Source: Dehalococcoidia bacterium (GTDB taxonomy: Bacteria; Chloroflexota; Dehalococcoidia; Lucifugimonadales; JAGWBF01). Taken from it: a DNA stretch of 64,000 nt. The DNA lies in the NCBI GenBank assembly GCA_965197405.1, contig OZ240206.1, positions 2,251,096 through 2,315,095 of the forward strand, read 5' to 3'. Below are positions 2,950-62,736 of this stretch, one piece after another. Made by a program: the position numbers and the translations under genes. The notes below the pieces were generated by a model. The model was given only the letters and a program-made list of their open reading frames with translations, ran no database searches and was not told the DNA's origin. How positions within the stretch are numbered: the first letter of the stretch is position 1; each line of letters begins with the position of its first letter.

Positions 2950-3070
2950 GTCATACCCGCCTGGCCTACTTCAGGCAGGCGGGTATCCACATCCTCGGCT
3001 TCTGGACTCCCTGCCTGCTTGGGCGTGCTGCTGCCAAGCATTTTAGATTCCTCGCTGCGCTCGGAATGAC
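2950..3070. repeat. hairpin-repeat cluster upstream of pepA
   Basis: 2950-2990 is GTCATACCCGCCTG..CAGGCGGGTATCCAC (10-bp stem). 3043-3070 is TTAGATTCCTCGCTGCGCTCGGAATGAC (inverted GTCA module). Confidence 0.8.
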
Positions 3071-13984: not shown

Positions 13985-14026
13985 GACCCCCTCTTCGCCA
14001 GGGAATTGGTAGTAGGCTCCCCCCGT

Positions 14027-14067
14027 CGGGCTTTCCCCTAGCGGGCTTTCCCCTAGCGGGCTTTCCC
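14027..14067. repeat. tandem 15-nt repeat, 2.7 copies (CGGGCTTTCCCCTAG)
   Basis: Read directly at 14027-14041, 14042-14056 and 14057-14067 (partial). Lies 43 nt upstream of the PHP gene start. Confidence 0.9.
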
Positions 14068-14167
14068 ATTGTATAGATGGCGGCTAACCTCGTCAATGCC
14101 ATAGCTGGCCGTCTAAGGGTCTTTTAATGATACGTGAAAGAATCACTAAAGCCTGGTGCTTCCCCAA

Positions 14168-14562
14168 CGTCACTCCCGCGAAAGCGCGAGTCCACCGCAG
14201 GGATTGGTGGACTCCTGCTTCCCCAGGAATTGCGGGTAGGACTGGTTTAGATATTTGCTCACGCGTCAGTAATTCTTGACTCTAGGCTAATACAGGCCCC
14301 GGAGCGTGTCATTCCGAACGGAGCCCTTCGACAAGCTCAGGATAAACTCCGCGACGAGGAATCTAGGGCGTGTTCACATAAAGGAGCGCAGGGCGTCCGA
14401 AATGCCCGCGTCATGTCATTCCGAATGTAGTGAGGAATCTAAAGAGCCTCTTCACGATCATGGCGCCATTCAGGCGACGGACACACGTAGCATTGCCAGG
14501 CCCGCTTTATGGACATGGACTTTAGATTCCTCAGTCGCTTCGCTCTTTCGGAATGACATTGT
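14168..14562. repeat. composite repeat region including a ~257-bp unit duplicated at 57292-57549
   Basis: 14170-14196 is GTCACTCCCGCGAAAGCGCGAGTCCAC. 14306-14562 is bounded by inverted GTCATTCCGAA... modules and is about 90% identical by eye to 57292-57549. Confidence 0.85.
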
Positions 14563-14863
14563 GGGTAGGGGGGACGAGGAAGGAACACGCCTTAATTCCA
14601 TCGCCCTGCTCAAGAAGACAGGGCCTTTTCAGGGTCCGATGGCAGGTGGAGAATATGGCGGCCGGTTGGGAGATACTCATCCGGAGTTGTTGGGCCTGCC
14701 GGGACTGAGTCGCAGTCCCTTCGTGGCCGCACTGTCTAGGCTGCTGCGGATGGTGCTGGTGTCTGGAGTGCGCCAGGCCCTGATGAGGTTCTCGGAGCAA
14801 CTCGCTGGGTTGCGCGGTTGTGGAGTTGAAGTGGCTGCTCCGCCGGTGCTCAGGAGACCATGC

Positions 14864-15316
14864 TCAGGCGCTCTTCCGGTCCCTCTTTTCCTCCATCGTC
14901 TTCTTTATAAACCCCACGATGTCTTGCGTGGATACGCCCGGGCCGAATATCGCCGTTATACCCGCCTGGAGCAGGGGTTCCCGGTCCTCCTCCGGTATGA
15001 TCCCTCCCGCCACCACCGTCACATCATCCATGCCCTTCTCCCGGAGGCCTCGCATTATTTCGGGGAAAATCTCCAGATGCGCGCCGGAGAGTATGCTGAG
15101 CCCTATCACGTCCACGTCTTCCTGGGCCGAGGCCTCCACGATCATCTGTGGGGTCTGGCGTATCCCCGTGTAAATGACCTCCATCCCCGCGTCCCTGAGC
15201 GCTCTCGCCACCACCTTCGCCCCCCGGTCATGGCCGTCGAGCCCGGGTTTGGCTACAAGCACCCGTATTGTGGTGTTTTGCTGTGCCATAGAATGACCAC
15301 CTCTTAGATTCCTCAC
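14864..15316 (-). CDS. methylmalonyl-CoA mutase, cobalamin-binding small subunit
   Basis: B12-binding DxHxxG motif ([12 protein letters not shown]). The probable true start is ATG 15289 (MAQQNTT.., SD AAGAGGTGG). The first 9 ORF-track codons are repeat sequence. Confidence 0.85.
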
Positions 15317-15412
15317 CCCGCGCAGTTTATCCTGAGATTGTCGAAGGGCTCCGTTCGGAATGACACGCGGCGGGGCCTGTGTTTACCTGACGCCAAGAAT
15401 GAAACGACCCTG
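15304..15412 (+). repeat. partial MITE-like element (long inverted GTCA module plus right terminal repeat)
   Basis: Reads TTAGATTCCTCACCCCGCGCAGTTTATCCTGAGATTGTCGAAGGGCTCCGTTCGGAATGAC..GCCTGTGTTTACCTGACGCCAAGAATGAAACGACCCTGG. Intercistronic within the mcm operon. Confidence 0.8.
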
Positions 15413-15845: not shown

Positions 15846-15886
15846 TCCTCTTGCGCCTCCTCTTGTCGCTCTTTCTTAGCGACTTC

Positions 15887-17041: not shown

Positions 17042-17122
17042 TTTGCACCTCCGTCAAGCTGTCAAACTAATGATGTCAATACTATGAGTAAGCATGATAG
17101 CATTGCCGTGAAAATACCCTTC

Positions 17123-17189
17123 GTCATACCCGCGAAAGCGGGTATTCACATCCCCGGCGTCCCTGGACTCCCGCTTTCGCGGGAGTGAC
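17123..17189. repeat. inverted doublet of GTCA-prefixed GAAA-tetraloop hairpins (REPIN-like)
   Basis: 17123-17149 is GTCATACCCGC-GAAA-GCGGGTATTCAC. 17164-17189 is the reverse complement of GTCACTCCCGC-GAAA-GCGGGAGTCCAG. Confidence 0.85.
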
Positions 17190-21985: not shown

Positions 21986-22034
21986 CGGAAAAGGCGAGCA
22001 AAGTTCCCCCATCCTGTCCAAAGAGAGTGAATAT

Positions 22035-22219
22035 CACGGTCGTTTCATTGTCACCCTGAGCGGTAGCGAAGGGTCTAAAGTCCTTCTCCCCAGTGTTGTT
22101 TCGCTTGCGAGGCATTTTAGATTCTTCGTCGCTCCGCTCCTCAGAATGACACGCGGTGGGGGCCTGCCTGCTGCAGGCAGGCCTGTATTCACCTGATGTC
22201 GAGAATGAAACGACCCTGG
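22035..22219 (+). mobile_element. MITE-like element, full copy (185 bp)
   Basis: The left end CACGGTCGTTTCATTGTCACCC is inverted at the right end GAGAATGAAACGACCCTGG. Internal GTCACCCTGAGCGGTAGCGAAGGGTCTAAA and TTAGATTCTTCGTCGCTCCGCTCCTCAGAATGAC modules form a long imperfect palindrome. Confidence 0.8.
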
Positions 22220-22220
22220 A

Positions 22221-22751
22221 GTGAGTATGGAGCAGCCGCGACAGTTGAACGGAATTGACCTGGACGCTCTGGATGAGGGACTGAAGGAGGTTGGGGAGCA
22301 GGAAGAGGCCCGCCACTCCAGGAAGAGGTCCCGCACCCAATGGCTGGGCGGCTTCAGGTTCAACGCCTTCGTGCGCAACAACACCTTCCTGGTCGAGGAA
22401 CCGGCCAGCCCGGCTGTCACGGAGCAGGTCCCAAACTCGATGGAGTACGTGCTGGGGGCCCTTGGGGCCTGTCTTGCCACGGGATTCGTCCTGAACGCCA
22501 CCCAGCGAGGCATAACCATTCACAACCTGGAGATAGCCTTGGACTCCAGCCAGGACAACGTCTTCACCTTTTTCGGTCTGAGCGAGGAAGGGCATCCGGG
22601 GTTTCAGGAAATCCGGGCGAAGCTGTACGTGCAGACCGAAGCCGCCGAGGAGACCGTTCGCGAGATATGGGACCGTGCCGTGAAGACCTCTCCCGTGGGC
22701 AACTCCCTGGGGCGAAGCGTGACCATCACACCGGAGCTATCGGTGCTGTGA
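22221..22751 (+). CDS. OsmC-family protein (single-Cys subtype)
   Basis: 176 aa with the GALGACLATGF core. Start is GTG 22221 or ATG 22227, immediately after the MITE end. Confidence 0.7.
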   Translation: MSMEQPRQLNGIDLDALDEGLKEVGEQEEARHSRKRSRTQWLGGFRFNAFVRNNTFLVEEPASPAVTEQVPNSMEYVLGALGACLATGFVLNATQRGITIHNLEIALDSSQDNVFTFFGLSEEGHPGFQEIRAKLYVQTEAAEETVREIWDRAVKTSPVGNSLGRSVTITPELSVL

Positions 22752-26784: not shown

Positions 26785-26830
26785 GGCAGACCGCTTCTTC
26801 CCTCAGAGGATGTCTGGCAAGGTACAGGCG

Positions 26831-26938
26831 CACTTCCTCTCCCTCGACGGGAGAGGATTGAGGTGAGGGTGATGCGACGGCGCCCCCTCATCCTAACCTT
26901 CTCCCACCAGGGGAGAAGGGACTTCTTGAACACCCTCT
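26831..26938. repeat. second copy (deletion variant) of the 'C' hairpin element
   Basis: Reads CACTTCCTCTCCCTCGACGGGAGAGGATTGAGGTGAGGGTGATGCGACGGCGCCCCCTCATCC..CCTTCTCCCACCAGGGGAGAAGGGACTT. It aligns with 683-816 minus the second arm of the middle hairpin. Confidence 0.8.
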
Positions 26939-28170: not shown

Positions 28171-28358
28171 CAGCGTCTCTTCATTGTCACCCCGAGCGAT
28201 AGCGAGGGGTCTAAAATCCTTTTCCTCGGTGTAGGTTTGTTCGTGAGGCATTTTAGATTCCTCACTCCGCTTCGCTCCGTTCGGAATGACGCGCGGTGGG
28301 CGCCTGTATTCACCTAACGTCCCTGCCTGACCGCAGGTAGGGAGAATGAGACGACCCT
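28171..28358 (+). mobile_element. MITE-like element, full copy (188 bp) between dxr and cdsA
   Basis: Left end is CAGCGTCTCTTCATTGTCACCCCGAGCGATAGCGAGGGGTCTAAAATCC. Right end is ..TTAGATTCCTCACTCCGCTTCGCTCCGTTCGGAATGAC..GGGAGAATGAGACGACCCT. Confidence 0.8.
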
Positions 28359-28381: not shown

Positions 28382-29386
28382 CTAGCCGGACGATTTCAAC
28401 ACCAGCGCGACAAGATAATACACCACCGGCAGGGTGAAGACAATCGAGTCCAGCCGGTCTAAAAACCCCCCGTGGCCTGGAAGGATACTTCCGGCGTCCT
28501 TGACCCCGGTGGCCCTCTTGAGACGAGACTCCGCCAGATCTCCCAGCTGGGCGAATACCCCTATGACCGCCCCCATCAAGGCGGCTTGCCAAAGGGGTAC
28601 TGACAATTGTAATGGAACTCCCAGGCCCACAGCAATGCCAACAGCCCACACAAATCCGCCAACTGCCCCCTCCCACGTCTTGTTGGGGCTTATGGAGGGG
28701 GCCATCGGGTGTCTCCCCACCATCCGGCCCGTGAAGAATGCCCCCGTATCGGTGGCAAAAGTCACCACCAGGGCGAAAAGGAGCCAGTCCCTACCGAAAT
28801 TGTCGGCGCCTCCCTCCAGCTCCCGGAGCATCAGGGCGTGGGCCAGGAGGAAGCCCAGGTATACCGGCCCGCCTACAGCGTAGGTCCACGCGGCGAGAGC
28901 GCCGTCCCTGTTGCGGTTGAGGATGAGCCAGGGGAGGGCTATCAGGAGGCCCGCGCCGAGGAGCACGTGGGGAGCGTAATCGTACCACTGGCCGGCGAGC
29001 TGTCCCGTGACGATGAACAGTATAGTCCACAGGCCCCCCAGGAACAGCCAGGGTCTTTTGATTGTCATCCTGAGGAGCGAAGCGACGAAGAATCTAAAGC
29101 TCTTAACTAGGGAATCGGCCTTGACTTGCAGGAGGGATTTTAGACCCCTCACTCCGTTCGGGGTGACAGTTAAACTGCTTGGGGTAACACTCGGACTGTG
29201 CGGGGTGACAATTGAATGGCCTTCCAGGAGGAGAGAGGGTTGGGGGGCGGGAGACATCCGGTAGAGTTCCCACAGTCCCAGCAGGGCTGCCAGGGCCACG
29301 ACAATGGGGAGCCAGGGGAAGCCTCCCCAGACGGCGCCAATGAGAAGGGGTACACCCACCAGGGCGGTAAGTATTCGCTTGATCAA
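28382..29386 (-). CDS. cdsA: phosphatidate cytidylyltransferase carrying a ~60-codon repeat-derived insertion
   Basis: Canonical N-terminus (KRILTALVGVPLLIGAVWGG..) and C-terminal signature SRLKRATGVKDAGSILPGHGGFLDRLDS. 334 aa against about 270 expected. The extra segment (aa ~53-113) is encoded by the MITE at 29048-29228. Confidence 0.85.
   Translation of the reverse strand: MIKRILTALVGVPLLIGAVWGGFPWLPIVVALAALLGLWELYRMSPAPQPSLLLEGHSIVTPHSPSVTPSSLTVTPNGVRGLKSLLQVKADSLVKSFRFFVASLLRMTIKRPWLFLGGLWTILFIVTGQLAGQWYDYAPHVLLGAGLLIALPWLILNRNRDGALAAWTYAVGGPVYLGFLLAHALMLRELEGGADNFGRDWLLFALVVTFATDTGAFFTGRMVGRHPMAPSISPNKTWEGAVGGFVWAVGIAVGLGVPLQLSVPLWQAALMGAVIGVFAQLGDLAESRLKRATGVKDAGSILPGHGGFLDRLDSIVFTLPVVYYLVALVLKSSG
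29048..29228 (-). mobile_element. MITE-like element inserted inside the cdsA reading frame
   Basis: Left end is CCAGGGTCTTTTGATTGTCATCCTGAGGAGCGAAGCGACGAAGAATCTAAAG. It continues ..ATTTTAGACCCCTCACTCCGTTCGGGGTGAC.. and ends GTGACAATTGAATGGCCTTCCAGG. Same module order as the intergenic copies. No stop codon in the cdsA frame. Confidence 0.8.
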
Positions 29387-34288: not shown

Positions 34289-34486
34289 CCAGTGTCTTCC
34301 AATTGTCACCCCGAGCGGAGTGAGGGGTCTAAAGTCCTAGTTGACCGCTGTGTTTTTCTGGCCGGTACGCCTTGATCCCGGTCCCTGTTAGGCGCCATTT
34401 CAGATTCCTCACTCCGCTTCGCTGTGTTCGGAATGACACGCCGCGAGGGCCTGTACTCGCCCAGCGTCGAGAATTGAATGACCCTG
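34289..34486 (+). mobile_element. MITE-like element, full copy (198 bp)
   Basis: Left end is CCAGTGTCTTCCAATTGTCACCCCGAGCGGAGTGAGGGGTCTAAAGTCC. Right end is ..TTCAGATTCCTCACTCCGCTTCGCTGTGTTCGGAATGAC..GTCGAGAATTGAATGACCCTG. Confidence 0.8.
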
Positions 34487-39962: not shown

Positions 39963-40148
39963 CCAGGGCCTTTTGATTCTCGACGCTGGGCGAATATCGG
40001 CCCCCGTCGTGAGTCATTCCGAACGGAGCGAAGCGGAGTGAGGAATCTCAGAAGCGGGGGCTTATTCGAGAGCATGGATTTTTAGATTCCTCGCTGCGCT
40101 CGGAATGACATGAGAGGGGGTGCAGGGTATTTTTATGATAAGCCCTGG
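39963..40148 (-). mobile_element. MITE-like element, inverted orientation (186 bp), ending 2 nt before the SD of the next gene
   Basis: Reads CCAGGGCCTTTTGATTCTCGAC..GTCATTCCGAACGGAGCGAAGCGGAGTGAGGAATCTCAG..TTTAGATTCCTCGCTGCGCTCGGAATGAC..TATGATAAGCCCTGG. Confidence 0.75.
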
Positions 40149-41653: not shown

Positions 41654-41678
41654 GCGAAGATTCGAGTAGCAAGATAGG

Positions 41679-42932
41679 ATGAGTGGAGTGAACAACGGCC
41701 AGCCAGCCCCATTGTCCCCGGAAGAGGCGCTGCAAGCCCTCATCCGCGACCAGGACTTGGAACGCTTGGAAGACCTGCTCGCCGAATTCAATCTGTTCGA
41801 CGTACTGGGCATCGCGCGACGCGAACTCCAGCATTCGGCGCTCCTCGCGTGGCTTCTTGACCCTCGTGGCTCCCACGGGCTGCGGGACTACTTTCTTCGT
41901 AGATTTCTCTCAGAAGCAGCGGCGGAGGCGAGCGAACGGGGAATCGCGGACGTTACACCGCTCGACGTGGACGGCTGGAAGCTCAGCGACATCGAGGTCG
42001 CGACCGAGCGCCATAACATGGATATCATGCTCATAGACGAGGCCGATGAGTTCGTCTGCCTCATAGAGAACAAGATTGGGGCCGGAGAGCACTCCGGTCA
42101 ACTCAGCCGCTATCTGAAGAAGGTCGAAAGCGAGTACGAAGGTCTCACGCCGTTCCCAATATTCCTGACGCCGGATGCTATGGAGCCGGAAGCTGAGGAT
42201 GATGTCGAACGCTACGTCACCCTCGACTATGGTAAGGTCGCTGACCTCGTCAATCGGACGCTAGAGACGCGACGCTCGACCATCAGCGCCAGCGTTGCCG
42301 GCTTCTTGGAGCAGTACGTCCGTACCTTGCGGAGGCATGTGTTGGACAACGCCGATAACATTGACGAGTTGGCTCTGCGGATATACAACAACCATCAGGC
42401 TGCCATTGACCTCATCATCAACGCCAAGCCGGCCCTGGAGGCCAAGGGCTGGGATGTCATCGAAGCCGCGATAGCAAGCTACGCGCCTGGCCTGCAGTAC
42501 AAAGCCCACAGCAAGTCACTTCGCCAATTCTTTTCCCTCTCCCTGGACGAGGTGCCACAGTTAAAGCAGGACCACATGGTTACGTTCGATTTTCGGCGCG
42601 ACAGTGGTATGACACTTCACCTATATGTGCAACCGGGTCCGGAGGAAGTACGCGAGAGCCTCCTCCAACTCGCTCGGAATACCAAGCCCTTTCATGTGGC
42701 AAGGAAGTCTAGTAAGAAGTATAGCAGGATATATCGAAAGCCCATCCTCAGCCAACAGGACTACAACCCGTTTGATCCTGATGAAGCCAGGCCAAAGGTA
42801 GAGAAGGCCATTGACGAGTTCTACGACAACGACTACTGGACGATAGTGAATGCCATACGCGGGGAGTTTGGCTTGTCTGCCACTTCTCGCCCGGGCGCCC
42901 GGGCCCATCACCCACTGTATGAACGGCTCTGA
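41679..42932 (+). CDS. PD-(D/E)XK nuclease superfamily protein (orphan)
   Basis: N-terminal FNLFDVLGIARRELQHSALLAWLLDPRGSHG block and the D..(E)xK core MDIMLID-x9-LIENK (about 42021-42074). 417 aa. Confidence 0.65.
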   Translation: MSGVNNGQPAPLSPEEALQALIRDQDLERLEDLLAEFNLFDVLGIARRELQHSALLAWLLDPRGSHGLRDYFLRRFLSEAAAEASERGIADVTPLDVDGWKLSDIEVATERHNMDIMLIDEADEFVCLIENKIGAGEHSGQLSRYLKKVESEYEGLTPFPIFLTPDAMEPEAEDDVERYVTLDYGKVADLVNRTLETRRSTISASVAGFLEQYVRTLRRHVLDNADNIDELALRIYNNHQAAIDLIINAKPALEAKGWDVIEAAIASYAPGLQYKAHSKSLRQFFSLSLDEVPQLKQDHMVTFDFRRDSGMTLHLYVQPGPEEVRESLLQLARNTKPFHVARKSSKKYSRIYRKPILSQQDYNPFDPDEARPKVEKAIDEFYDNDYWTIVNAIRGEFGLSATSRPGARAHHPLYERL

Positions 42933-42950
42933 TTTGGATAACAAGCAGGG

Positions 42951-44144
42951 TCACAGCCCGGACCGCTTCGCCGCTGCCGCGAACCCCTCCATAGCCCCTT
43001 CCAGGACCCGGTCCTCCAGGCAGTAGGAGATGCGGAAGTAGCCCGGCGAGCCGAATCCCCGGCCCGGCACGGCGAGCACGTTGTATTCCTGTAGCTCTTC
43101 CACGAAGGCCACGTCGTCTTCCACGGGCGACTTGGGAAACATGTAGAAAGCGCCCCGGGGCTTGAATGTGGAGTAACCCATCTCTGTGAGCTGGCCGTAA
43201 AGATAGTCTCTCTTGCGCTGGTAGTCCCCCACGTCCACGCTGACGCCCTGGAGCGCGCGAACGGCGTGCTGCATCAGCGCCGGCGCGTTCACGAACCCCA
43301 GGATGCGGTTGCAGAACGTGAGGCCGTCCACAAGTTCCGCGCTCGCCTCATACGCCGGGTTCACGGCTATGTAGCCAATGCGCTCCCCCGGCAGGGCCAG
43401 GTCCTTGGCGTGGGAGTAGACGACCAGTGAGGCTTCATAGTGGGGAAAGACCTGGGGGTAGGTGAGGCCGTCGTAGATAATCCGGCGATACGGCTCGTCG
43501 CTTACGAGGAATATCTCCGTCCCGTACTGCGCCCCTTTCCGGCGCAGCAGTTCCCCCATAGCCTCAAGCCGCTCCGGGCTGTAGACCGCCCCCGAGGGGT
43601 TGTTGGGGGAGTTAATCAGCACGGCTTTGGTGCGCGGCGTTATCAGCCCCTCCAGTGCGCCGAGGTCCGGCTGGAAGCCCTCGTCGGTGGGGGCGATTAC
43701 CGGGACGCCCCCGTGGTTGTCGGTATAGTAGCCGTACTCCACGAAATAGGGGGCGAAGAACACCACTTCCTCCCCCGGATTGAGAATGGTCTTCAGGACC
43801 ACGTTGAGGGCCGCCGCCGCGCCGCAGGTCATGACGATCTCCCCCGTGCTGAAAGGGATGCCCGTCTCCTCCGCCAGCCCGGCTGCGACAGCCTCCCTCG
43901 TTTCGCGATAGCCGGCGTTGGGCATATACCGGTGCATACCCCTGATGGGGTCCTGGGCCAGCCTCCTGAGCTCCTGGTGGAACTCGGGTGGGGGCTCGAC
44001 TACAGGATTGCCCAGGGAGAGGTCGAAGACCTTGTCTTCGCCATACTGCTGCTTCAGGGCAATGCCGGCCTCAAACATGCGGCGAATCCATCCCCCTTCT
44101 TCCACGAAACGCTTTACTTTCTCTGATACCGCCATTTTCGCCAC
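42951..44144 (-). CDS. class I/II PLP-dependent aminotransferase (aspartate/alanine type)
   Basis: 397 aa with LINSPNNPSG and the YSHAKDLALPGERIGY (PLP-Lys region) motif. Confidence 0.85.
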   Translation of the reverse strand: MAKMAVSEKVKRFVEEGGWIRRMFEAGIALKQQYGEDKVFDLSLGNPVVEPPPEFHQELRRLAQDPIRGMHRYMPNAGYRETREAVAAGLAEETGIPFSTGEIVMTCGAAAALNVVLKTILNPGEEVVFFAPYFVEYGYYTDNHGGVPVIAPTDEGFQPDLGALEGLITPRTKAVLINSPNNPSGAVYSPERLEAMGELLRRKGAQYGTEIFLVSDEPYRRIIYDGLTYPQVFPHYEASLVVYSHAKDLALPGERIGYIAVNPAYEASAELVDGLTFCNRILGFVNAPALMQHAVRALQGVSVDVGDYQRKRDYLYGQLTEMGYSTFKPRGAFYMFPKSPVEDDVAFVEELQEYNVLAVPGRGFGSPGYFRISYCLEDRVLEGAMEGFAAAAKRSGL

Positions 44145-44435: not shown

Positions 44436-44510
44436 GGCAACGTAGCTCAGGGGTAGAGCGGGCGCTTCATAAGCGCTAGGTCGTTGGTTCGAACCCAACC
44501 GTTGCCACCA
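44436..44510 (+). tRNA. tRNA-Met (anticodon CAT; elongator-type, or Ile2 if lysidinylated), CCA encoded
   Basis: GGCAACG TA GCTC AGGGGTA GAGC G GGCGC TTCATAA GCGCT AGGTC GTTGG TTCGAAC CCAAC CGTTGCC A CCA. The 1-72 pair is G-C, so it is not an initiator. Confidence 0.9.
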
Positions 44511-45377: not shown

Positions 45378-45413
45378 GTATCGTTCATAGATTGTCAGAT
45401 GAAGGGCTATCTA

Positions 45414-45845
45414 TCAGCCCGCAGTCACTGACCCCGGCTCGGTCAGGGGTTGCAGTATGTCCAGGACAGTCTCTATCTGATCAAGTCCTCTACCAATGGC
45501 GTCGGGGCGCAAGAGCATCTTGCGGGTGTAAAAGAACCCGTGCAGTGTGTTAGCAACGTGCCACAGGCCGGGCAGTCGGGCATCGGGAGACAGGTCTTCG
45601 GCTTGGTACATCACTTTGAAAAACTCGTCGTGGGCCTTATATTGCCAGTCCTGGGCTTCCGCGACGGCCTTGGCCATCCAGGCAGCGGCGCCCCAACCCT
45701 TTTCCGACGCCTGGTGCAAGTCGCCATCGGCCAGGTACTCCCGCGCCTTGGCTAGGAAAACCCTGGACTGCCGACGGTAGTCGGCCACGGCGTTGCCATC
45801 CTGCTCATACGGTTCCATTGTGGACATTTGACTCATCCGGTGCAT
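45414..45845 (-). CDS. helical protein, PaREP1/HEPN-like by motif memory (paralog 1)
   Basis: About 140 aa with AREYLADGDLHQASEKGWGAAAW and LHGFFY motifs. Start is ATG 45836 or 45845. Confidence 0.5.
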   Translation of the reverse strand: MHRMSQMSTMEPYEQDGNAVADYRRQSRVFLAKAREYLADGDLHQASEKGWGAAAWMAKAVAEAQDWQYKAHDEFFKVMYQAEDLSPDARLPGLWHVANTLHGFFYTRKMLLRPDAIGRGLDQIETVLDILQPLTEPGSVTAG

Positions 45846-45902
45846 CCTCTCCCTGATGTGGGAAGCTAAACACCTCCACCTGTCAGATAAAGGGGCTATC
45901 TA

Positions 45903-46325
45903 TCAGCCCGCAGCCACTGACCCCGGCTCGGTCAGGGGTTGCAGTATGTCCAGCAGGACCTCGACTTTATCAAGGTCTTGACCGATGGCATCTGGGATCA
46001 GGAACATCTTGCGGGTGTAGAAGAACCCGTGCAGTGCGTTCGCGACATACCCCAGATCATGCACTCTGGCATCACGCGACAGGTTTTCGGCTTGGTACAT
46101 CACCCTGAAAAACTCTTCGTGAGCTTTGTATCGCCAGCCTTGGGCTTCCGCGACGGCCTTGGCTATCCAGGCAGCCGCGCCCCAACCCTTTTCCGACGCC
46201 TGATGCAAGTCGCCATCGGCCAGGTACTCCCGCGCCTTGGCTAGGAAAACCCTGGACTGCCGACGGTAGTCGGCTACGGCGTTGCCATCCTGCTCATACG
46301 GTTCCATTGTGGACATTTGACTCAT
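45903..46325 (-). CDS. helical protein, PaREP1/HEPN-like by motif memory (paralog 2)
   Basis: 140 aa. The first 53 aa are identical to paralog 1. Start chosen at MSQMSTM (46325); the ORF-track extension to 46424 overlaps the upstream gene. Confidence 0.5.
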   Translation of the reverse strand: MSQMSTMEPYEQDGNAVADYRRQSRVFLAKAREYLADGDLHQASEKGWGAAAWIAKAVAEAQGWRYKAHEEFFRVMYQAENLSRDARVHDLGYVANALHGFFYTRKMFLIPDAIGQDLDKVEVLLDILQPLTEPGSVAAG

Positions 46326-46336
46326 CCAAGCTATCC

Positions 46337-46549
46337 TTACTCGCCATCTTCCAGGACCTGGTAGCAGTGCTTGCACACAAATACCAGCGCCAGGGCCTCC
46401 TCGTGGCTGGCGATGCGCCCGCACTGGGGCACCTGGGCGTCAACGCTCCAGGGTTGGTGAAACTTCCTGCCGCACATCTGGCAGGAGGCCTGATGGACCT
46501 CGTCCAGAGGCCCATCACATACTACGCACAGCTCCTCCGGCTCCGTCAA
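46337..46549 (-). CDS. small Cys-rich zinc-ribbon protein (70 aa)
   Basis: CVVC..x13..CQMC..x16..C..x16..CKHC. TTG start 8 nt after an AAAGGAGG that lies inside the end of cca. Confidence 0.5.
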   Translation of the reverse strand: MTEPEELCVVCDGPLDEVHQASCQMCGRKFHQPWSVDAQVPQCGRIASHEEALALVFVCKHCYQVLEDGE

Positions 46550-48067: not shown

Positions 48068-48179
48068 GTGTCTCCTGACTGAGCGGAGCGAAGAAGCTCA
48101 GTTACATGGGAGATACCCTTCGTCGCGCTCAGGGCCTGCCCCTGGCTTGAACAGGGGGGTGACAATGAAAAAGCCCTGC
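48068..48179 (-). repeat. partial repeat modules in the rex 5' leader
   Basis: 48068-48105 is GTGTCTCCTGACTGAGCGGAGCGAAGAAGCTCAGTTAC. 48116-48179 is ..GCCTGCCCCTGGCTTGAACAGGGGGGTGACAATGAAAAAGCCCTGC, which matches 57665-57719. Confidence 0.75.
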
Positions 48180-48258: not shown

Positions 48259-48924
48259 ATGATAGCGAAGCCAGCGCCCCAGCAGACTGACCAGGGAGAA
48301 GTACCTCAAGTAGTCATAATGAGGGTGCCCCAGTACATCCGAATCCTTGGCGCGCTTCTGGCGGAACACGCAGAGATAGTAAGCTCCCAACAGTTGGGGG
48401 AGATGCTCCAGGTGACTCCGGCCCAGATACGGAAGGACCTGAGCTATTTTGGGAGGTTCGGCAAGCAGGGCCGGGGGTATAGCGTAAGGCATCTCCTGGC
48501 GGAGTTGAAGGAGATCATGGGCCTGGACCAGCACTGGAACGTGGGCCTGGTGGGGGTAGGCAGGCTGGGAAAGGCCATCCTGAGCTATCCCGGGTTTGCT
48601 CCGGAGGGATTTCAGATAGTGGCCGCCTTCGAGGCGAACCGCAGGATGGTAGGCCGGACCGTAGCCGATCTGAAAGTGCAGTCAATGGACGAGTTGGACG
48701 TGACCGTGACGGACCTGAACATAAGTATAGGCATCGTCGCCGTGCCCGGCCAGCATGCCCAGGGGGTCATAGACCGTTTAATGCAGTGCGGCGTGAAAGC
48801 TATCCTGAACTATGCCCCCATATCCCCCCAGTCCCAGCACGGGGTTACAATCAGGAACATTGACCCTGTCCTCTCCCTCCAGACCATGACCTTCTACCTG
48901 TTGAACGACGAGGGCCATTCCTAG
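48259..48924 (+). CDS. rex: redox-sensing transcriptional repressor Rex
   Basis: RVPQYIRIL..VSSQQLGEMLQVTPAQIRKDLSYFG winged helix plus the Rossmann motif VGLVGVGRLG. SD is AAGGAGG. Confidence 0.85.
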   Translation: MIAKPAPQQTDQGEVPQVVIMRVPQYIRILGALLAEHAEIVSSQQLGEMLQVTPAQIRKDLSYFGRFGKQGRGYSVRHLLAELKEIMGLDQHWNVGLVGVGRLGKAILSYPGFAPEGFQIVAAFEANRRMVGRTVADLKVQSMDELDVTVTDLNISIGIVAVPGQHAQGVIDRLMQCGVKAILNYAPISPQSQHGVTIRNIDPVLSLQTMTFYLLNDEGHS

Positions 48925-49137
48925 CCAGGGTCGTTTCATTGTCACCCTGAGCGGTAGCGAAGGGTCTAAAGTCCTTTCCCTGGGTGTCGGTTTGCTCGTG
49001 AGACATTTCAGGTTCTTCGTCGCTCCGATCCTCAGAATGCCGCATGGTGGAGGGTCTGTCTGCTGCCAGGCAGAAGCAGGTCTGTATTCACCCCTGCCTG
49101 GCGGCAGACAGGTAGTGTCAAGGATTAAACGATCCTG
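48925..49137 (+). mobile_element. MITE-like element, full copy (213 bp) starting at the nucleotide after the rex stop codon
   Basis: Left end is CCAGGGTCGTTTCATTGTCACCCTGAGCGGTAGCGAAGGGTCTAAAGTCC. It continues ..TTCAGGTTCTTCGTCGCTCCGATCCTCAGAATGCC.. and ends GTCAAGGATTAAACGATCCTG. Confidence 0.8.
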
Positions 49138-49143
49138 CCATTC

Positions 49144-49578
49144 CTAGCCGGAAGAAGGAGGTTGGACCTCGCGGCTCCGCCTCCGCCGCGCCACTCGCAG
49201 CCGCGTCTCCGCTCGTCTCAGGGCCGTTGCTGCCCGCTCCAGGTCCAGATCGGCGGTACGGCTGGCTAACCTCTCCTGGGCACGCTGCACCGCTACCCGC
49301 GCTCGCTCCTCGTCTATCTCATCGGAATGCTCGCAGGCATCGGAGAGGATAGTGACCCGGTTTCCCATCACTTCCAGGAAGCCGCCGGTCACCGCCAGGT
49401 AGCTCTCCTGGCCGTCCTTGCGAATCACTATCTCGCCCGGTTGAAGGGCGGTCATAAGGGGAGCGTGATGTGGCAGAATGCCCAACTCCCCGTCTATACC
49501 CGGTGCTACCAGGACTTCCACGTCGTCGGAGAATACCCGGCGCTCCGCCGTTATTATCTCAAGCCGCATAGTTACCAT
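49144..49578 (-). CDS. atpC: F1 ATP synthase epsilon subunit
   Basis: 144 aa. Position after atpD and the LEIITAERRVFSD..V.APG..GELGILPHHAPL motif. Confidence 0.9.
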   Translation of the reverse strand: MVTMRLEIITAERRVFSDDVEVLVAPGIDGELGILPHHAPLMTALQPGEIVIRKDGQESYLAVTGGFLEVMGNRVTILSDACEHSDEIDEERARVAVQRAQERLASRTADLDLERAATALRRAETRLRVARRRRSREVQPPSSG

Positions 49579-57246: not shown

Positions 57247-57718
57247 CAGTCTTTTCATTCTCGACGTTACTCGCTGTCAGGCCCCCGCCGCGTGTCATTT
57301 CGAACGGAGTCCTTCGACAAGCTCAGGATAAACTCCGCGACGAGGAATCTAGGGCGTGTTCACGCAAAGGAGCGCAAGGCGTCCCGGAATGCCCGCGTCA
57401 TATCATTCCGAACGCAGTGAGGAATCTAAAGAGCCTCTTCACGGTCACGGCGCCATTCCGGCGACGGACACGCATAGCATTGCCAAACCGGCTTTATGGG
57501 CATGGACTTTAGATTCCTCAGTCGCTTCGCTCTTTCGGAATGACAGTGTGGGGGGCGACGAGAAAGTGTGAACACTACCTAGAATGGCGCTTAACAAAAA
57601 CCTGAATCAAAGCAGCGCCAGCCAGAACAAGACCGCGATCAGCCAGGACTTTTAGACCTCTTGCTTCGCTCGGAGCCTGCCCCTGGCTTGAACAGGAGGT
57701 GACAATCAAAAGACCCTG
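57247..57718 (-). mobile_element. composite (nested) MITE-like element, ~470 bp
   Basis: The ends CAGTCTTTTCATTCTCGAC.. and ..GTGACAATCAAAAGACCCTG are inverted repeats of the family termini. The interior carries the 257-bp unit 57292-57549 (copy of 14306-14562) plus further modules. Confidence 0.75.
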
Positions 57719-62518: not shown

Positions 62519-62736
62519 GTGGATCTCAAATGATTGTCACCCCGAGCGGAGCGGAGGGGTCTAAAATGCTGGCTGGCCGCGGTCTTGTTCTGCCGGTACG
62601 GCTTGATCCCGATTTTTGTTAGGCGCTATTTCAGATTCCTCACTCCGCTTCGCTCCATTCGGAATGACACGCGGCGGGGTCTGTATTCGTCTAACGTCCC
62701 TGTCTGACGCCAGGCAGGGAGAATCAAACAGGCCTG
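62519..62736 (+). mobile_element. MITE-like element, full copy (~218 bp)
   Basis: Left end is ..CAAATGATTGTCACCCCGAGCGGAGCGGAGGGGTCTAAAATGC. Right end is ..TTCAGATTCCTCACTCCGCTTCGCTCCATTCGGAATGAC..GGGAGAATCAAACAGGCCTG. Confidence 0.8.

Follow-up and report, generated by a model that had tools for sequence, protein, structure and literature searches.

The window analysed here, a stretch of 64,000 nt of contig OZ240206.1 (3,377,400 bp) from a Dehalococcoidia bacterium (Chloroflexota), contains a family of short palindromic repeats in eight bounded copies of 175-472 bp, plus fragments. With a probability of roughly 85%, we consider these repeats to be non-autonomous DNA transposons, i.e. [quoted passage not shown] They constitute a new MITE family of an already known element type. 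An initial annotation of the window had read the repeats as mobile MITEs on the basis of copy number, terminal inverted repeats and the presence of both orientations, and target duplications and empty sites in relatives can now be added to these. What that annotation had missed is that the interior of the repeats is a head-to-head dimer of REP-like hairpins common to several phyla, that this interior is separable from the inverted ends, and that one copy lies in frame in the gene cdsA.

Architecture of the repeats

Copy boundaries were set from the inverted ends together with the target duplications. Six of the eight bounded copies have an inverted end of 15-18 bp, CAGGGTCKTTTSATT, on either side; in the other two, one end is degenerate, namely the left one at 62525 and the right one at 29049. 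Both the length of about 19 bp previously assigned to these ends and the inclusion of the outer C/G of CCAGGG...CCCTGG had to be corrected, as this outer pair is part of the flank and the element itself reads CAG...CTG. The seven full copies of the initial annotation all exist, with coordinates within 1-6 nt of ours; they align mutually and were recovered independently as repeat families. Pairwise divergence among the window copies amounts to 15-30%. The simple copies measure 175-212 bp, the 472-bp copy is nested, and there is neither a conserved open reading frame (ORF) nor any coding capacity. The head of the hairpin described below, GTCAYYCYGA, occurs 22 times in the window compared to an expectation of 1.1, and none of 100 shuffles reached 22; for the end motif CAGGGTCKTTTSATT, allowing up to three mismatches, 23 occurrences compare to 3.6 expected ones.

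From left to right, a copy consists of the left end CAGGGTC(G/T)TTT(C/G)ATT, a hairpin module GTCA-YYCY-GA...RGRR-TCTAAA, a spacer, an inverted module, a GC-rich stretch with GCCTGTATTCACCT, sometimes a hairpin CCTGCCTG...CAGGCAGG, and the right end ...GAGAATGAAACGACCCTG. The layout is not as uniform as described before: the copies at 39964 and 57247 have the long, right-type end on the left. The long imperfect palindrome proposed for the unit likewise holds insofar as the whole unit can fold, yet each interior module is a hairpin by itself. Copies are present in both orientations and in convergent, divergent and co-directional gene contexts, mostly in intergenic positions near gene ends.

The reference copy (22035-22218, 184 bp; features are given without strand unless one is stated) has the ends CACGGTCGTTTCATT / CAGGGTCGTTTCATT (reverse complement) and lies between a Meth_synt_2 gene and an OsmC gene, its right end being 8 nt upstream of the OsmC ATG. 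Folded as single-stranded DNA, it reaches -42.2 kcal/mol (z -5.8). Its left core hairpin (22050-22079, plus strand) reads GTCA-CCCT-GAGCGGTAGCGA-AGGG-TCTAAA, with the stem ACCCT/AGGGT, a tandem G.A and a small loop, and its inverted right core hairpin (22117-22150, minus strand) reads GTCA-TTCT-GAGGAGCGGAGCGACGA-AGAA-TCTAAA; since the two stems differ, the pair is a heterodimer. In the long right end (22151-22218), there is a segment rich in GC, GCCTGTATTCACCT and, at the terminus, GTCGAGAATGAAACGACCCTG; the CCTGCCTGCTGCAGGCAGG hairpin is optional. At the OsmC gene, the target duplication of this copy (22219-22228) includes the first two bases of the ATG, and a Shine-Dalgarno-like GGAG is now formed at the junction of element and duplication.

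The other bounded copies are a 188-bp copy in the dxr-cdsA spacer (28171-28358), the 175-bp copy in frame inside cdsA (29049-29223), a 197-bp copy (34290-34486) which belongs to a subfamily with a longer spacer in common with the copy at 62525, a 184-bp copy with the long end on the left (39964-40147) and a 212-bp copy (48926-49137) whose insertion point is the stop codon of a gene that ends at 48924. The core of the 39964 copy is a homodimer of ATTCC/GGAAT hairpins, and this copy and 811-891 belong to one spacer subfamily. The duplication of the 48926 copy (48915-48925) includes the TAG stop of the upstream gene. A further copy, with a degenerate left end, lies at 62525-62736. Finally, the 472-bp stretch at 57247-57718, with the ends CAGTCTTTTCATT / CAGGGTCTTTTGATT, had been listed as a partial or nested version, together with 15304-15412 and 48116-48178. 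All three are real and 57247-57718 does hold nested modules; it is a complete, bounded composite copy, however, and not a partial one.

Target duplications and empty sites

The target duplications in the window span 10-12 bp. The copy at 48926-49137 is flanked by a perfect 11-bp duplication (11/11), CCATTCCTAGC, at 48915-48925 and 49138-49148. The flanks of the reference copy, GAGTGAATAT (22025-22034) and GAGTGAGTAT (22219-22228), agree at 9/10 positions, those of the copies at 28171 (ACTAAAATCTC / ATTAAGACCTC) and 29049 (CCAGGAACAGC / CCAGGAGGAGA) at 8/11 positions each, and the flanks of 57247-57718 (CTCCCGGACCTCA / CTCCGGACATCA) show a duplication of about 12 bp with about 9/12 matches. In other Dehalococcoidia, perfect 10-bp duplications surround a 180-bp copy (L004, GGCACAAATC; loci from other assemblies are given L numbers), a 184-bp copy (L088, CTTCGACCGA), a 325-bp copy (L117, GGAGGTTGTT) and, also in L117, a 337-bp copy that is nested in another copy (GTTCTTGGCG); a further duplication in this group matches at 10/11 positions (L063).

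Loci of related strains were fetched via near-identical proteins. In a strain with 92-95% identity (L123), there is no element at the site of 57247-57718 and only ...CTCCGGGCCTCA... / ...GCGCTCCGGGCCTCACCCGGGG... is present, which equals a single copy of the target that is duplicated around the window element. In a related species (L135), the CdsA of which is 79% identical, the DNA shows an empty site for the 29049 copy, and the cdsA-dxr spacer carries a smaller, different hairpin dimer without CAGGG ends in place of the 28171 copy. A different small element is found in L123 at the site of 62525-62736. Taken together, the target duplications, the inverted ends and the empty sites define the repeats as MITEs.

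In a strain with 98.8% identity (L119), the copies at 22035, 28171, 29049, 34290, 39964 and 48926 are all present, and other sequence stands in place of the region 14270-14557. The insertion at 48926 is also found in a 90% identical strain (L125), which has a nested insert of about 150 bp in addition. More generally, the same copies occur at the same sites in independent assemblies of other samples (L001-L003, L119-L123, L125-L127). Short-read metagenome contigs with an identical upstream gene all stop inside the 22035 copy, which is the expected effect of a genome-wide repeat on assembly. In one Logan contig (L003, 1930-2033, compared to window 22060-22150), the flanking gene is identical and the spacer of the element differs at many positions, resembling the 28171/48926 subfamily; this may be the result of gene conversion among copies or of an assembly that is chimeric for several of them.

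A core hairpin conserved across phyla

For the core hairpin, 185,579 species genomes were scanned with a degenerate pattern without pairing requirement, which yielded at least 115 stretches; the module counts below are taken from the matches listed. The hairpin was found in at least seven phyla, with matches in Dehalococcoidia, Chloroflexia, Bacteroidales, Chitinophagales, other Bacteroidota, Ignavibacteria, Ruminococcaceae, other Clostridia, Terriglobia, Patescibacteria, Calothrix, Opitutus, Victivallales, and Alpha- and other Proteobacteria, and there were no matches to the pattern in viral contigs. The fold that we infer is TGTC / A-YYCY / tandem G.A / R-C / GNA loop / G-Y / G.A / RGRR-T / CTAAA, i.e. 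a stem of nine positions (5 bp, the tandem G.A and 2 bp), two of which are non-canonical. Of 242 modules, 218 carry a TGTC tag and 11 a CGTC tag, 216 (about 89%) have a stem that opens with A followed by T, and the tail is CTA in 143, CTG in 54 and CCA in three. The commonest form has a 3-nt GNA loop, a count that is partly constrained as the search pattern allowed only a variable centre of 1-3 nt. Variants in the window have loops of 11-40 nt, and an extra-long form holds an inverted related hairpin in its loop.

The pairing of this hairpin is reflected in covariation. Of 69 unique hairpins from many phyla, 62-68 have a Watson-Crick pair at each of the four variable position pairs (Fisher p from 4e-11 to 3e-18), pairings shifted as a control showed far weaker association or none, and G.T pairs were no commoner than A.C. 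With a looser parse, the three outer variable pairs are all Watson-Crick in 229 of 241 modules. We further compared pairing within and between the modules of the dimers with outward tags (n=62), of which 34 are heterodimers. In the latter, pairs within a module are Watson-Crick in 203/204 cases, whereas pairs between modules would be so in 97/204, which argues for selection on every module as an independent hairpin and not merely as part of one long palindrome.

Two known RNA classes were tried and rejected as identities of the repeat. With regard to Rfam families, the sole match on 21990-22260 up to E = 10 is a chance hit to SAH (E = 7), and in the whole window the three tRNAs alone reach the gathering threshold of Rfam 15. 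A hammerhead ribozyme, which had been considered for a GUC plus CUGAGGA in one module, was dismissed, since the CUGANGA/GAAA core is missing from the generic module. In five other loci (L026, L114, L101, L111, L006), two or three tandem partial copies of the 5' half precede a full hairpin with a period of about 20-21 nt, e.g. GTCATCCTGAACGAAGTACCT; these could be the footprint of repeated insertion or of slippage.

Separability of the hairpin dimer and the inverted ends

Across phyla, the hairpin dimer was found within at least six unrelated types of outer inverted repeats; CAGGG ends are used in the window, and at least five other end types in Bacteroidota, Chloroflexia and further groups. 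In L058, the dimer lies inside 24-bp ends with an 8-bp duplication, CATTTTTA, and other end types surround it in L091, L099, L015, L078 and in a type common to L097, L006 and L050. Conversely, two of seven metagenome matches to the long end are MITEs from soil, about 165 bp long, which share these ends and have a different interior, and one of which has a 9-bp duplication, CGTCATACC, and sits inside a CGTC-type hairpin. The same dimer in differing ends and CAGGG ends with other interiors indicate that ends and core are separable, which leaves open a two-layer model with a dimer hitch-hiking on various MITEs. In its widest form, this model would make the TGTC-tagged dimer a pan-bacterial module without transposase of its own that persists in the cores of MITEs with exchangeable ends, a generalisation we regard as doubtful. 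If it were true, it would explain why the CGTC/TGTC REP superfamily has no linked transposase, namely by hitch-hiking on DDE-type MITEs, and the hairpin would give a benefit that keeps it, be it help in transposition, protection from the host or tolerance in genes.

Insertion in cdsA

The copy at 29049-29223 lies in the cdsA ORF (28382-29386, minus strand), which encodes 334 aa and is assumed to be an essential lipid-synthesis gene. Element and 11-bp duplication add up to 175 + 11 = 186 nt, or 62 codons, without a stop in the cdsA frame, and the Pfam match to CTP_transf_1 (residues 3-328) spans the insert. The other listed CdsA homologues (n=119) measure 230-312 aa compared to 334 aa here, none being long enough for the insert; the nearest ones (73-79% identical) have about 273 aa, and all seven homologues that were aligned lack the 61-aa block after the first two hydrophobic segments. 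The insert adds about 61 residues, in a loop after the first two predicted membrane helices. The 98.8% identical strain has the same open 334-aa cdsA. This copy indicates that an element of this kind can lengthen a conserved membrane enzyme by about 60 residues and persist.

Proposed mode of transposition

In the proposed mechanism, a non-coding MITE unit, about 175-215 bp in size or as much as 472 bp in nested copies, would be inserted at a staggered cut of the target, the filling-in of which would give rise to the 10-11-bp target duplication, and the DDE transposase would be supplied in trans from elsewhere in the genome. The cargo is a head-to-head dimer of REP-like hairpins of ~30 nt, each with a TGTC tag, a stem opening with AT and containing the tandem G.A, a GNA loop and a CTA(AA) tail; between the two lies a spacer (35-85 nt), conserved among the copies of a subfamily. 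Selection maintains either hairpin as a separate stem-loop, which may act in single-stranded DNA or in RNA and may have a role of its own.

A general DDE cut-and-paste or copy-and-paste mechanism is held much more strongly than the assignment of the transposase to a family. For the latter, an ISAs1-like enzyme is our tentative candidate, put forward at somewhat less than even odds from two features, the CAGGG ends and the duplication of about 10 bp. In the ISfinder family table, ISAs1 has CAGGG ends and direct repeats of 8-10 bp. Groups of the IS4 family have duplications of 10-13 bp. The ends of the E. coli yhhI/H-rpt element, which we read directly, are CAGGG...CCCTG (CAGGGAAAGAT.../...CTTGCCCTG). 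In our family, the duplication is 10 bp long in five clean cases elsewhere and in the 22035 copy (9/10), and one perfect case of 11 bp and one of about 12 bp occur in the window.

Several observations weigh against the reading of the repeats as MITEs moved by such an enzyme. When flanks were compared, no recognisable duplication was seen at 34290, 39964 and 62525, i.e. at three of eight copies, the 34290 copy having no clear duplication left. The absence of the element from L123 could be due to precise loss instead of a gain in the lineage of the window, and L119, the closest strain, has every bounded copy that its contig covers (22035 to 48926), so that there is no sign of very recent activity. 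Duplications of 10-12 bp slightly exceed the 8-10 bp of ISAs1, and the IS4-family range of 10-13 bp fits them too. No autonomous partner with matching ends was found in the window or in about 1 Mb of related loci, and the metagenome scan with the long end gave seven matches, none of which is a full-length insertion sequence (IS). Lastly, folding of single hairpins is weak (z about -2 to +0.6, nearest-neighbour model), so that the reality of the hairpin rests on covariation.

With regard to candidate transposases, the related loci contained no convincing pair of inverted ends 0.8-2.5 kb apart enclosing an ORF, and no ISAs1 transposase was found near any copy. In agreement with the initial annotation, Pfam annotation of selected large ORFs of the window revealed no transposase and only housekeeping genes, e.g. 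those for ATP synthase, the rpsB-tsf-pyrH-frr-uppS-cdsA-dxr cluster, tRNA synthetases and methylmalonyl-CoA mutase; among named relatives, those closest to the window proteins are from metagenome-assembled genomes (MAGs) of Dehalococcoidia and the SAR202 cluster. When the 2,969 ORFs of 110 loci with hairpins were clustered all against all, no gene family was tied to the hairpins, and six cluster representatives were assigned by Pfam to an ABC transporter, a short-chain dehydrogenase, a luciferase-like monooxygenase, a 2-hydroxyacid dehydrogenase and two FAD oxidases. A gene in L117 flanked by inverted copies was rejected as transposase since it encodes an FAD oxidase, and a candidate end at 14619, CAGGGCCTTTTCAGG, was judged coincidental.

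Alternative explanations

The layout of the core raises the question whether the repeats could be of the REPIN/RAYT type, with an inverted hairpin pair that is mobile as single-stranded DNA by means of a single-copy HUH tyrosine transposase (RAYT) recognising a conserved tag at the foot of the hairpin, and with outer ends that are incidental. Such a mode would account for the nearly pure Watson-Crick pairs with G.T no commoner than A.C, as is fitting for a DNA hairpin, for the same hairpin pair within differing outer inverted repeats in other phyla, for CAGGG ends around a different interior in soil contigs and for hairpins nested in loops of other hairpins. However, HUH/Y1 transposition produces no target duplication, whereas here the 10-11-bp duplications flank the whole unit bounded by the inverted ends and the empty site fits these outer boundaries. 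Moreover, there is no transposase in the window, and a crude regular-expression screen (Y..NP after an H.H stretch) of the 2,969 ORFs of hairpin-bearing loci returned no convincing HUH/Y1 protein. The inverted hairpins with 5' tag, 3' tail and subfamily-conserved spacer do match REPINs and head-to-head dimers as described by Bertels and Rainey (PMC3116915) and Di Nocera et al. (PMC3733652), but REPIN/RAYT systems are lineage-specific and vertically inherited while the hairpin here occurs in at least seven phyla, and CGTC-tagged REPs are, as reported by Di Nocera et al. (PMC3733652), never found beside a tyrosine transposase gene. We therefore consider this mode of spread improbable. More weight is due to the possibility that the dimer is a separate small mobile or recombining module which settles in the centres of palindromes and MITEs and is spread passively by DDE-type MITEs. 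The dimer within at least six unrelated types of outer ends (including the 24-bp inverted repeat and 8-bp duplication of L058), the existence of the CAGGG-end family with other interiors, and reciprocal nesting, with a GAGG...CCTC element in a dimer (657-813) and a dimer in such ends (L023), all speak in its favour, as do the extra-long hairpin with an inverted hairpin in its loop, the incomplete heads that in other genomes stand in tandem upstream of a full hairpin and the CGTC-1 and GTAG-15 dimers that Di Nocera et al. (PMC3733652) described within longer palindromes. Yet no direct insertion polymorphism of a bare dimer was seen among the loci compared, a single ancient MITE superfamily with ends co-evolving with transposases and a conserved core fits equally well, and recombination between elements could give the same pattern. 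We know of no enzyme for such a module and hold this explanation to be unlikely, albeit worth keeping in view.

Alternatively, the repeats could be cis-acting RNA or DNA structures kept by the host, such as transcript stabilisers, terminators or protein-binding sites in the manner of REP/BIME sequences, and not be mobile. The mostly intergenic location near gene ends, the strong conservation of the hairpin structure across phyla and the good folding of the whole element are compatible with this, as is the binding of gyrase and IHF and the stabilisation of mRNA by REPs, mentioned as background in PMC3733652. It is contradicted by the target duplications, inverted ends and empty sites, which show insertion, by the occurrence of both orientations, of all gene contexts and of one copy in coding sequence, by the lack of a T-run after the hairpins, and by Rfam, to which there was no match at the gathering threshold that would concern the repeats in the window and none up to E = 10 for the reference copy save the chance hit. 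A purely host-kept structure is thus very improbable, and a host role after insertion would add to mobility rather than replace it. A local duplication or an assembly artefact confined to the region, for which nothing speaks except that the copies cluster within one 64-kb window, is refuted by the occupation of the same sites in independent assemblies of other samples, by the presence of the family in genomes of other species and by the 15-30% difference between copies. The two findings by which the initial annotation would have given up mobility, i.e. copies restricted to this region and identical copies at all orthologous loci, were not obtained, given the spread of the family to other species and assemblies and the empty sites in L123 and L135. 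Hence, a MITE family with hairpin-dimer cargo remains the reading that we prefer.

Other repeats and genes in the window

Besides the bounded copies, the window holds a half element composed of an extra-long hairpin and the long right end (15304-15412, found through the repeat families), a mosaic fragment of long end, extra-long hairpin and hairpin dimer (14270-14557, with the dimer at 14415-14557) which is 87-93% identical to 57283-57575, and a solo right-end fragment recognised by its end motif (48116-48178). In an old hairpin dimer of the 39964 type (619-873), an element of a second MITE family (657-813) splits the spacer, and a solo core hairpin with a remnant of conserved spacer (3006-3070, minus strand) is 84% identical to the L023 dimer. 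Summed up, and with the other small-repeat families counted in, the repeats make up about 4-5% of the window, close to the earlier estimate of about 5%.

The second MITE family (657-813 and 26806-26937 in the window, 4939-5066 in L119) has the ends GAGG(G/A)TGT...ACACCCTC and a 3-bp TNA duplication, which is TAA at 654-656/814-816 and TCA at 26803-26805/26938-26940; judged from these sequence features, an origin from the IS5/IS1031 group would fit. L119 has an extra partial copy of this family where the window has 15850-15886. Further small repeat families are found at ~880-1050 and 14113-14268 in the window and at L125 5185-5345, L119 3593-3650 and L117 4410-4597. One of them starts with ATGGCCTTGCC(A/G)GGCCAC..GATGAAAA and another has ACTGATGCGTGAATAAG... 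ends; both carry classic CCA-tailed hairpins of the CGTC type, e.g. GTCATTCCGGCGAAGGCCGGAATCCA, and both are found nested in CAGGG-ended MITEs, where the insertion point within the inverted end is the same each time (TTTT^AATT).

Among the genes, a 417-aa PD-(D/E)XK nuclease (Pfam PDDEXK_4) is encoded at 41654-42969, with a convergent gene on either side; the 98.8% identical strain does not have it and carries 79 nt of unrelated sequence in its place, and no inverted ends or duplication were seen around it. Two tandem PaREP1/PaREP8 paralogues (45404-46424) are 84% identical over 300 nt and differ in copy number in L125. A short tandem repeat, GGGCTTTCCCCTAGC x3 with the last unit imperfect, is located at 14016-14066 just upstream of a repeat-rich spacer. 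The tRNA genes are at 1088-1160, 1252-1325 and 44436-44507, the first two adjoining the repeat-rich spacer 573-1087.

Comparison with known systems

Like the bacterial MITEs Correia/NEMIS of Neisseria, RUP, ERIC, Nezha and MITEAba12, the elements described here are non-coding, shorter than 300 bp in the simple form, bounded by terminal inverted repeats and flanked by a target duplication, they occur in many mostly intergenic copies that can fold into a long hairpin and include nested or mosaic ones, and they are presumed to depend on an IS transposase in trans. Unlike in those families, the interior is a dimer of a cross-phylum hairpin and not a random IS remnant, and the host belongs to a Dehalococcoidia (Chloroflexota) MAG lineage. 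To our knowledge, CAGGGTCKTTTSATT ends in combination with a 10-11-bp duplication match no named MITE family. Literature searches by sequence snippets and by topic found no description of a CAGGG-ended MITE or of the hairpin, and those for MITEs in Chloroflexi and sponges or for ISAs1 with CAGGG found nothing specific. The ISAs1 family (E. coli H-rpt/YhhI, IS1358) resembles our elements in its CAGGG/CCCTG ends and, as far as the 10-bp cases go, in direct repeats of about 8-10 bp and differs in that the ends beyond CAGGG are unrelated to the E. coli example and that the duplication here extends to 11-12 bp in some copies. The elements provide a concrete, well-bounded mobile-element family for Dehalococcoidia/SAR202-like Chloroflexota, and one cause of broken short-read assemblies.

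The in-frame copy in cdsA recalls the Rickettsia palindromic elements, in which a small palindrome likewise lies in frame in a conserved gene that stays open; here, in contrast, only one of eight bounded copies is intragenic, the ends are clearly inverted, a target duplication is present, and the host is a free-living or symbiotic member of the Chloroflexota. Di Nocera et al. (2013; PMC3733652) assigned two of the Rickettsia elements, RPE-4 and RPE-6, to the CGTC superfamily, of which dRS3 of Neisseria is a member too. According to that paper, CGTC-tagged REPs have a CGTC tag, often TGTC and with CCTC as a further variant, a stem of 8-9 bp starting from AT, a loop of 4-5 nt and a short 3-nt CCA tail; they form mostly head-to-head dimers, with frequent heterodimers, occur in several phyla and in part within genes, and have no transposase. 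Our hairpins agree with this description in the (C/T)GTC tag, the A-T start of the stem, the short unpaired tail and the head-to-head dimers and heterodimers (equating our outward tags with the head-to-head class as described there is an assumption), as well as in the occurrence in several phyla, the location of some copies within genes and the lack of an associated transposase gene. They differ from it in that the tail is CTA/CTG(AA) instead of CCA, that a tandem G.A and a GNA triloop or longer loops replace the perfect 8-9-bp stem and 4-5-nt loop, and that the dimers lie inside units with inverted ends and flanking target duplications. In addition, Chloroflexota, Firmicutes, Cyanobacteria, Acidobacteria, Verrucomicrobia and Patescibacteria, all of which were matched here, are not among the groups listed for CGTC repeats in the paper, and a text search of PMC3733652 and its supplements returned none of our hairpin sequences. 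Classic CCA-tailed units are present in the window as well, at 932-960, 2951-2992, 14169-14195 and 17117-17149. Judged by these features, the hairpin works like the CGTC superfamily and is probably related to it, without belonging to its four families.

With REPINs (Bertels and Rainey 2011, PMC3116915), the elements have in common two inverted REP hairpins plus spacer with the tags outside. REPINs have neither terminal inverted repeats beyond the REPs nor a target duplication, carry a GTAG tag, come with a single-copy RAYT gene flanked by them and are lineage-specific, none of which applies here; membership in REPIN-RAYT was rejected on the grounds of the tag (TGTC, not GTAG), the duplications and the lack of a RAYT-like transposase in the loci screened. 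As with the BIMEs of E. coli and the NIMEs of Neisseria, several families of small repeats are combined and nested within one intergenic region, and one spacer can hold different elements in different strains, but the mosaics here can largely be explained by transposons inserted into one another, each with ends and a duplication of its own. A core hairpin that is conserved in at least seven phyla while the ends change is the opposite of what is expected of a MITE and calls for a testable function. In this way, the family links classical MITEs with inverted repeats and target duplications to the REP-like CGTC/TGTC hairpin dimers, the mode of spread of which had been open.

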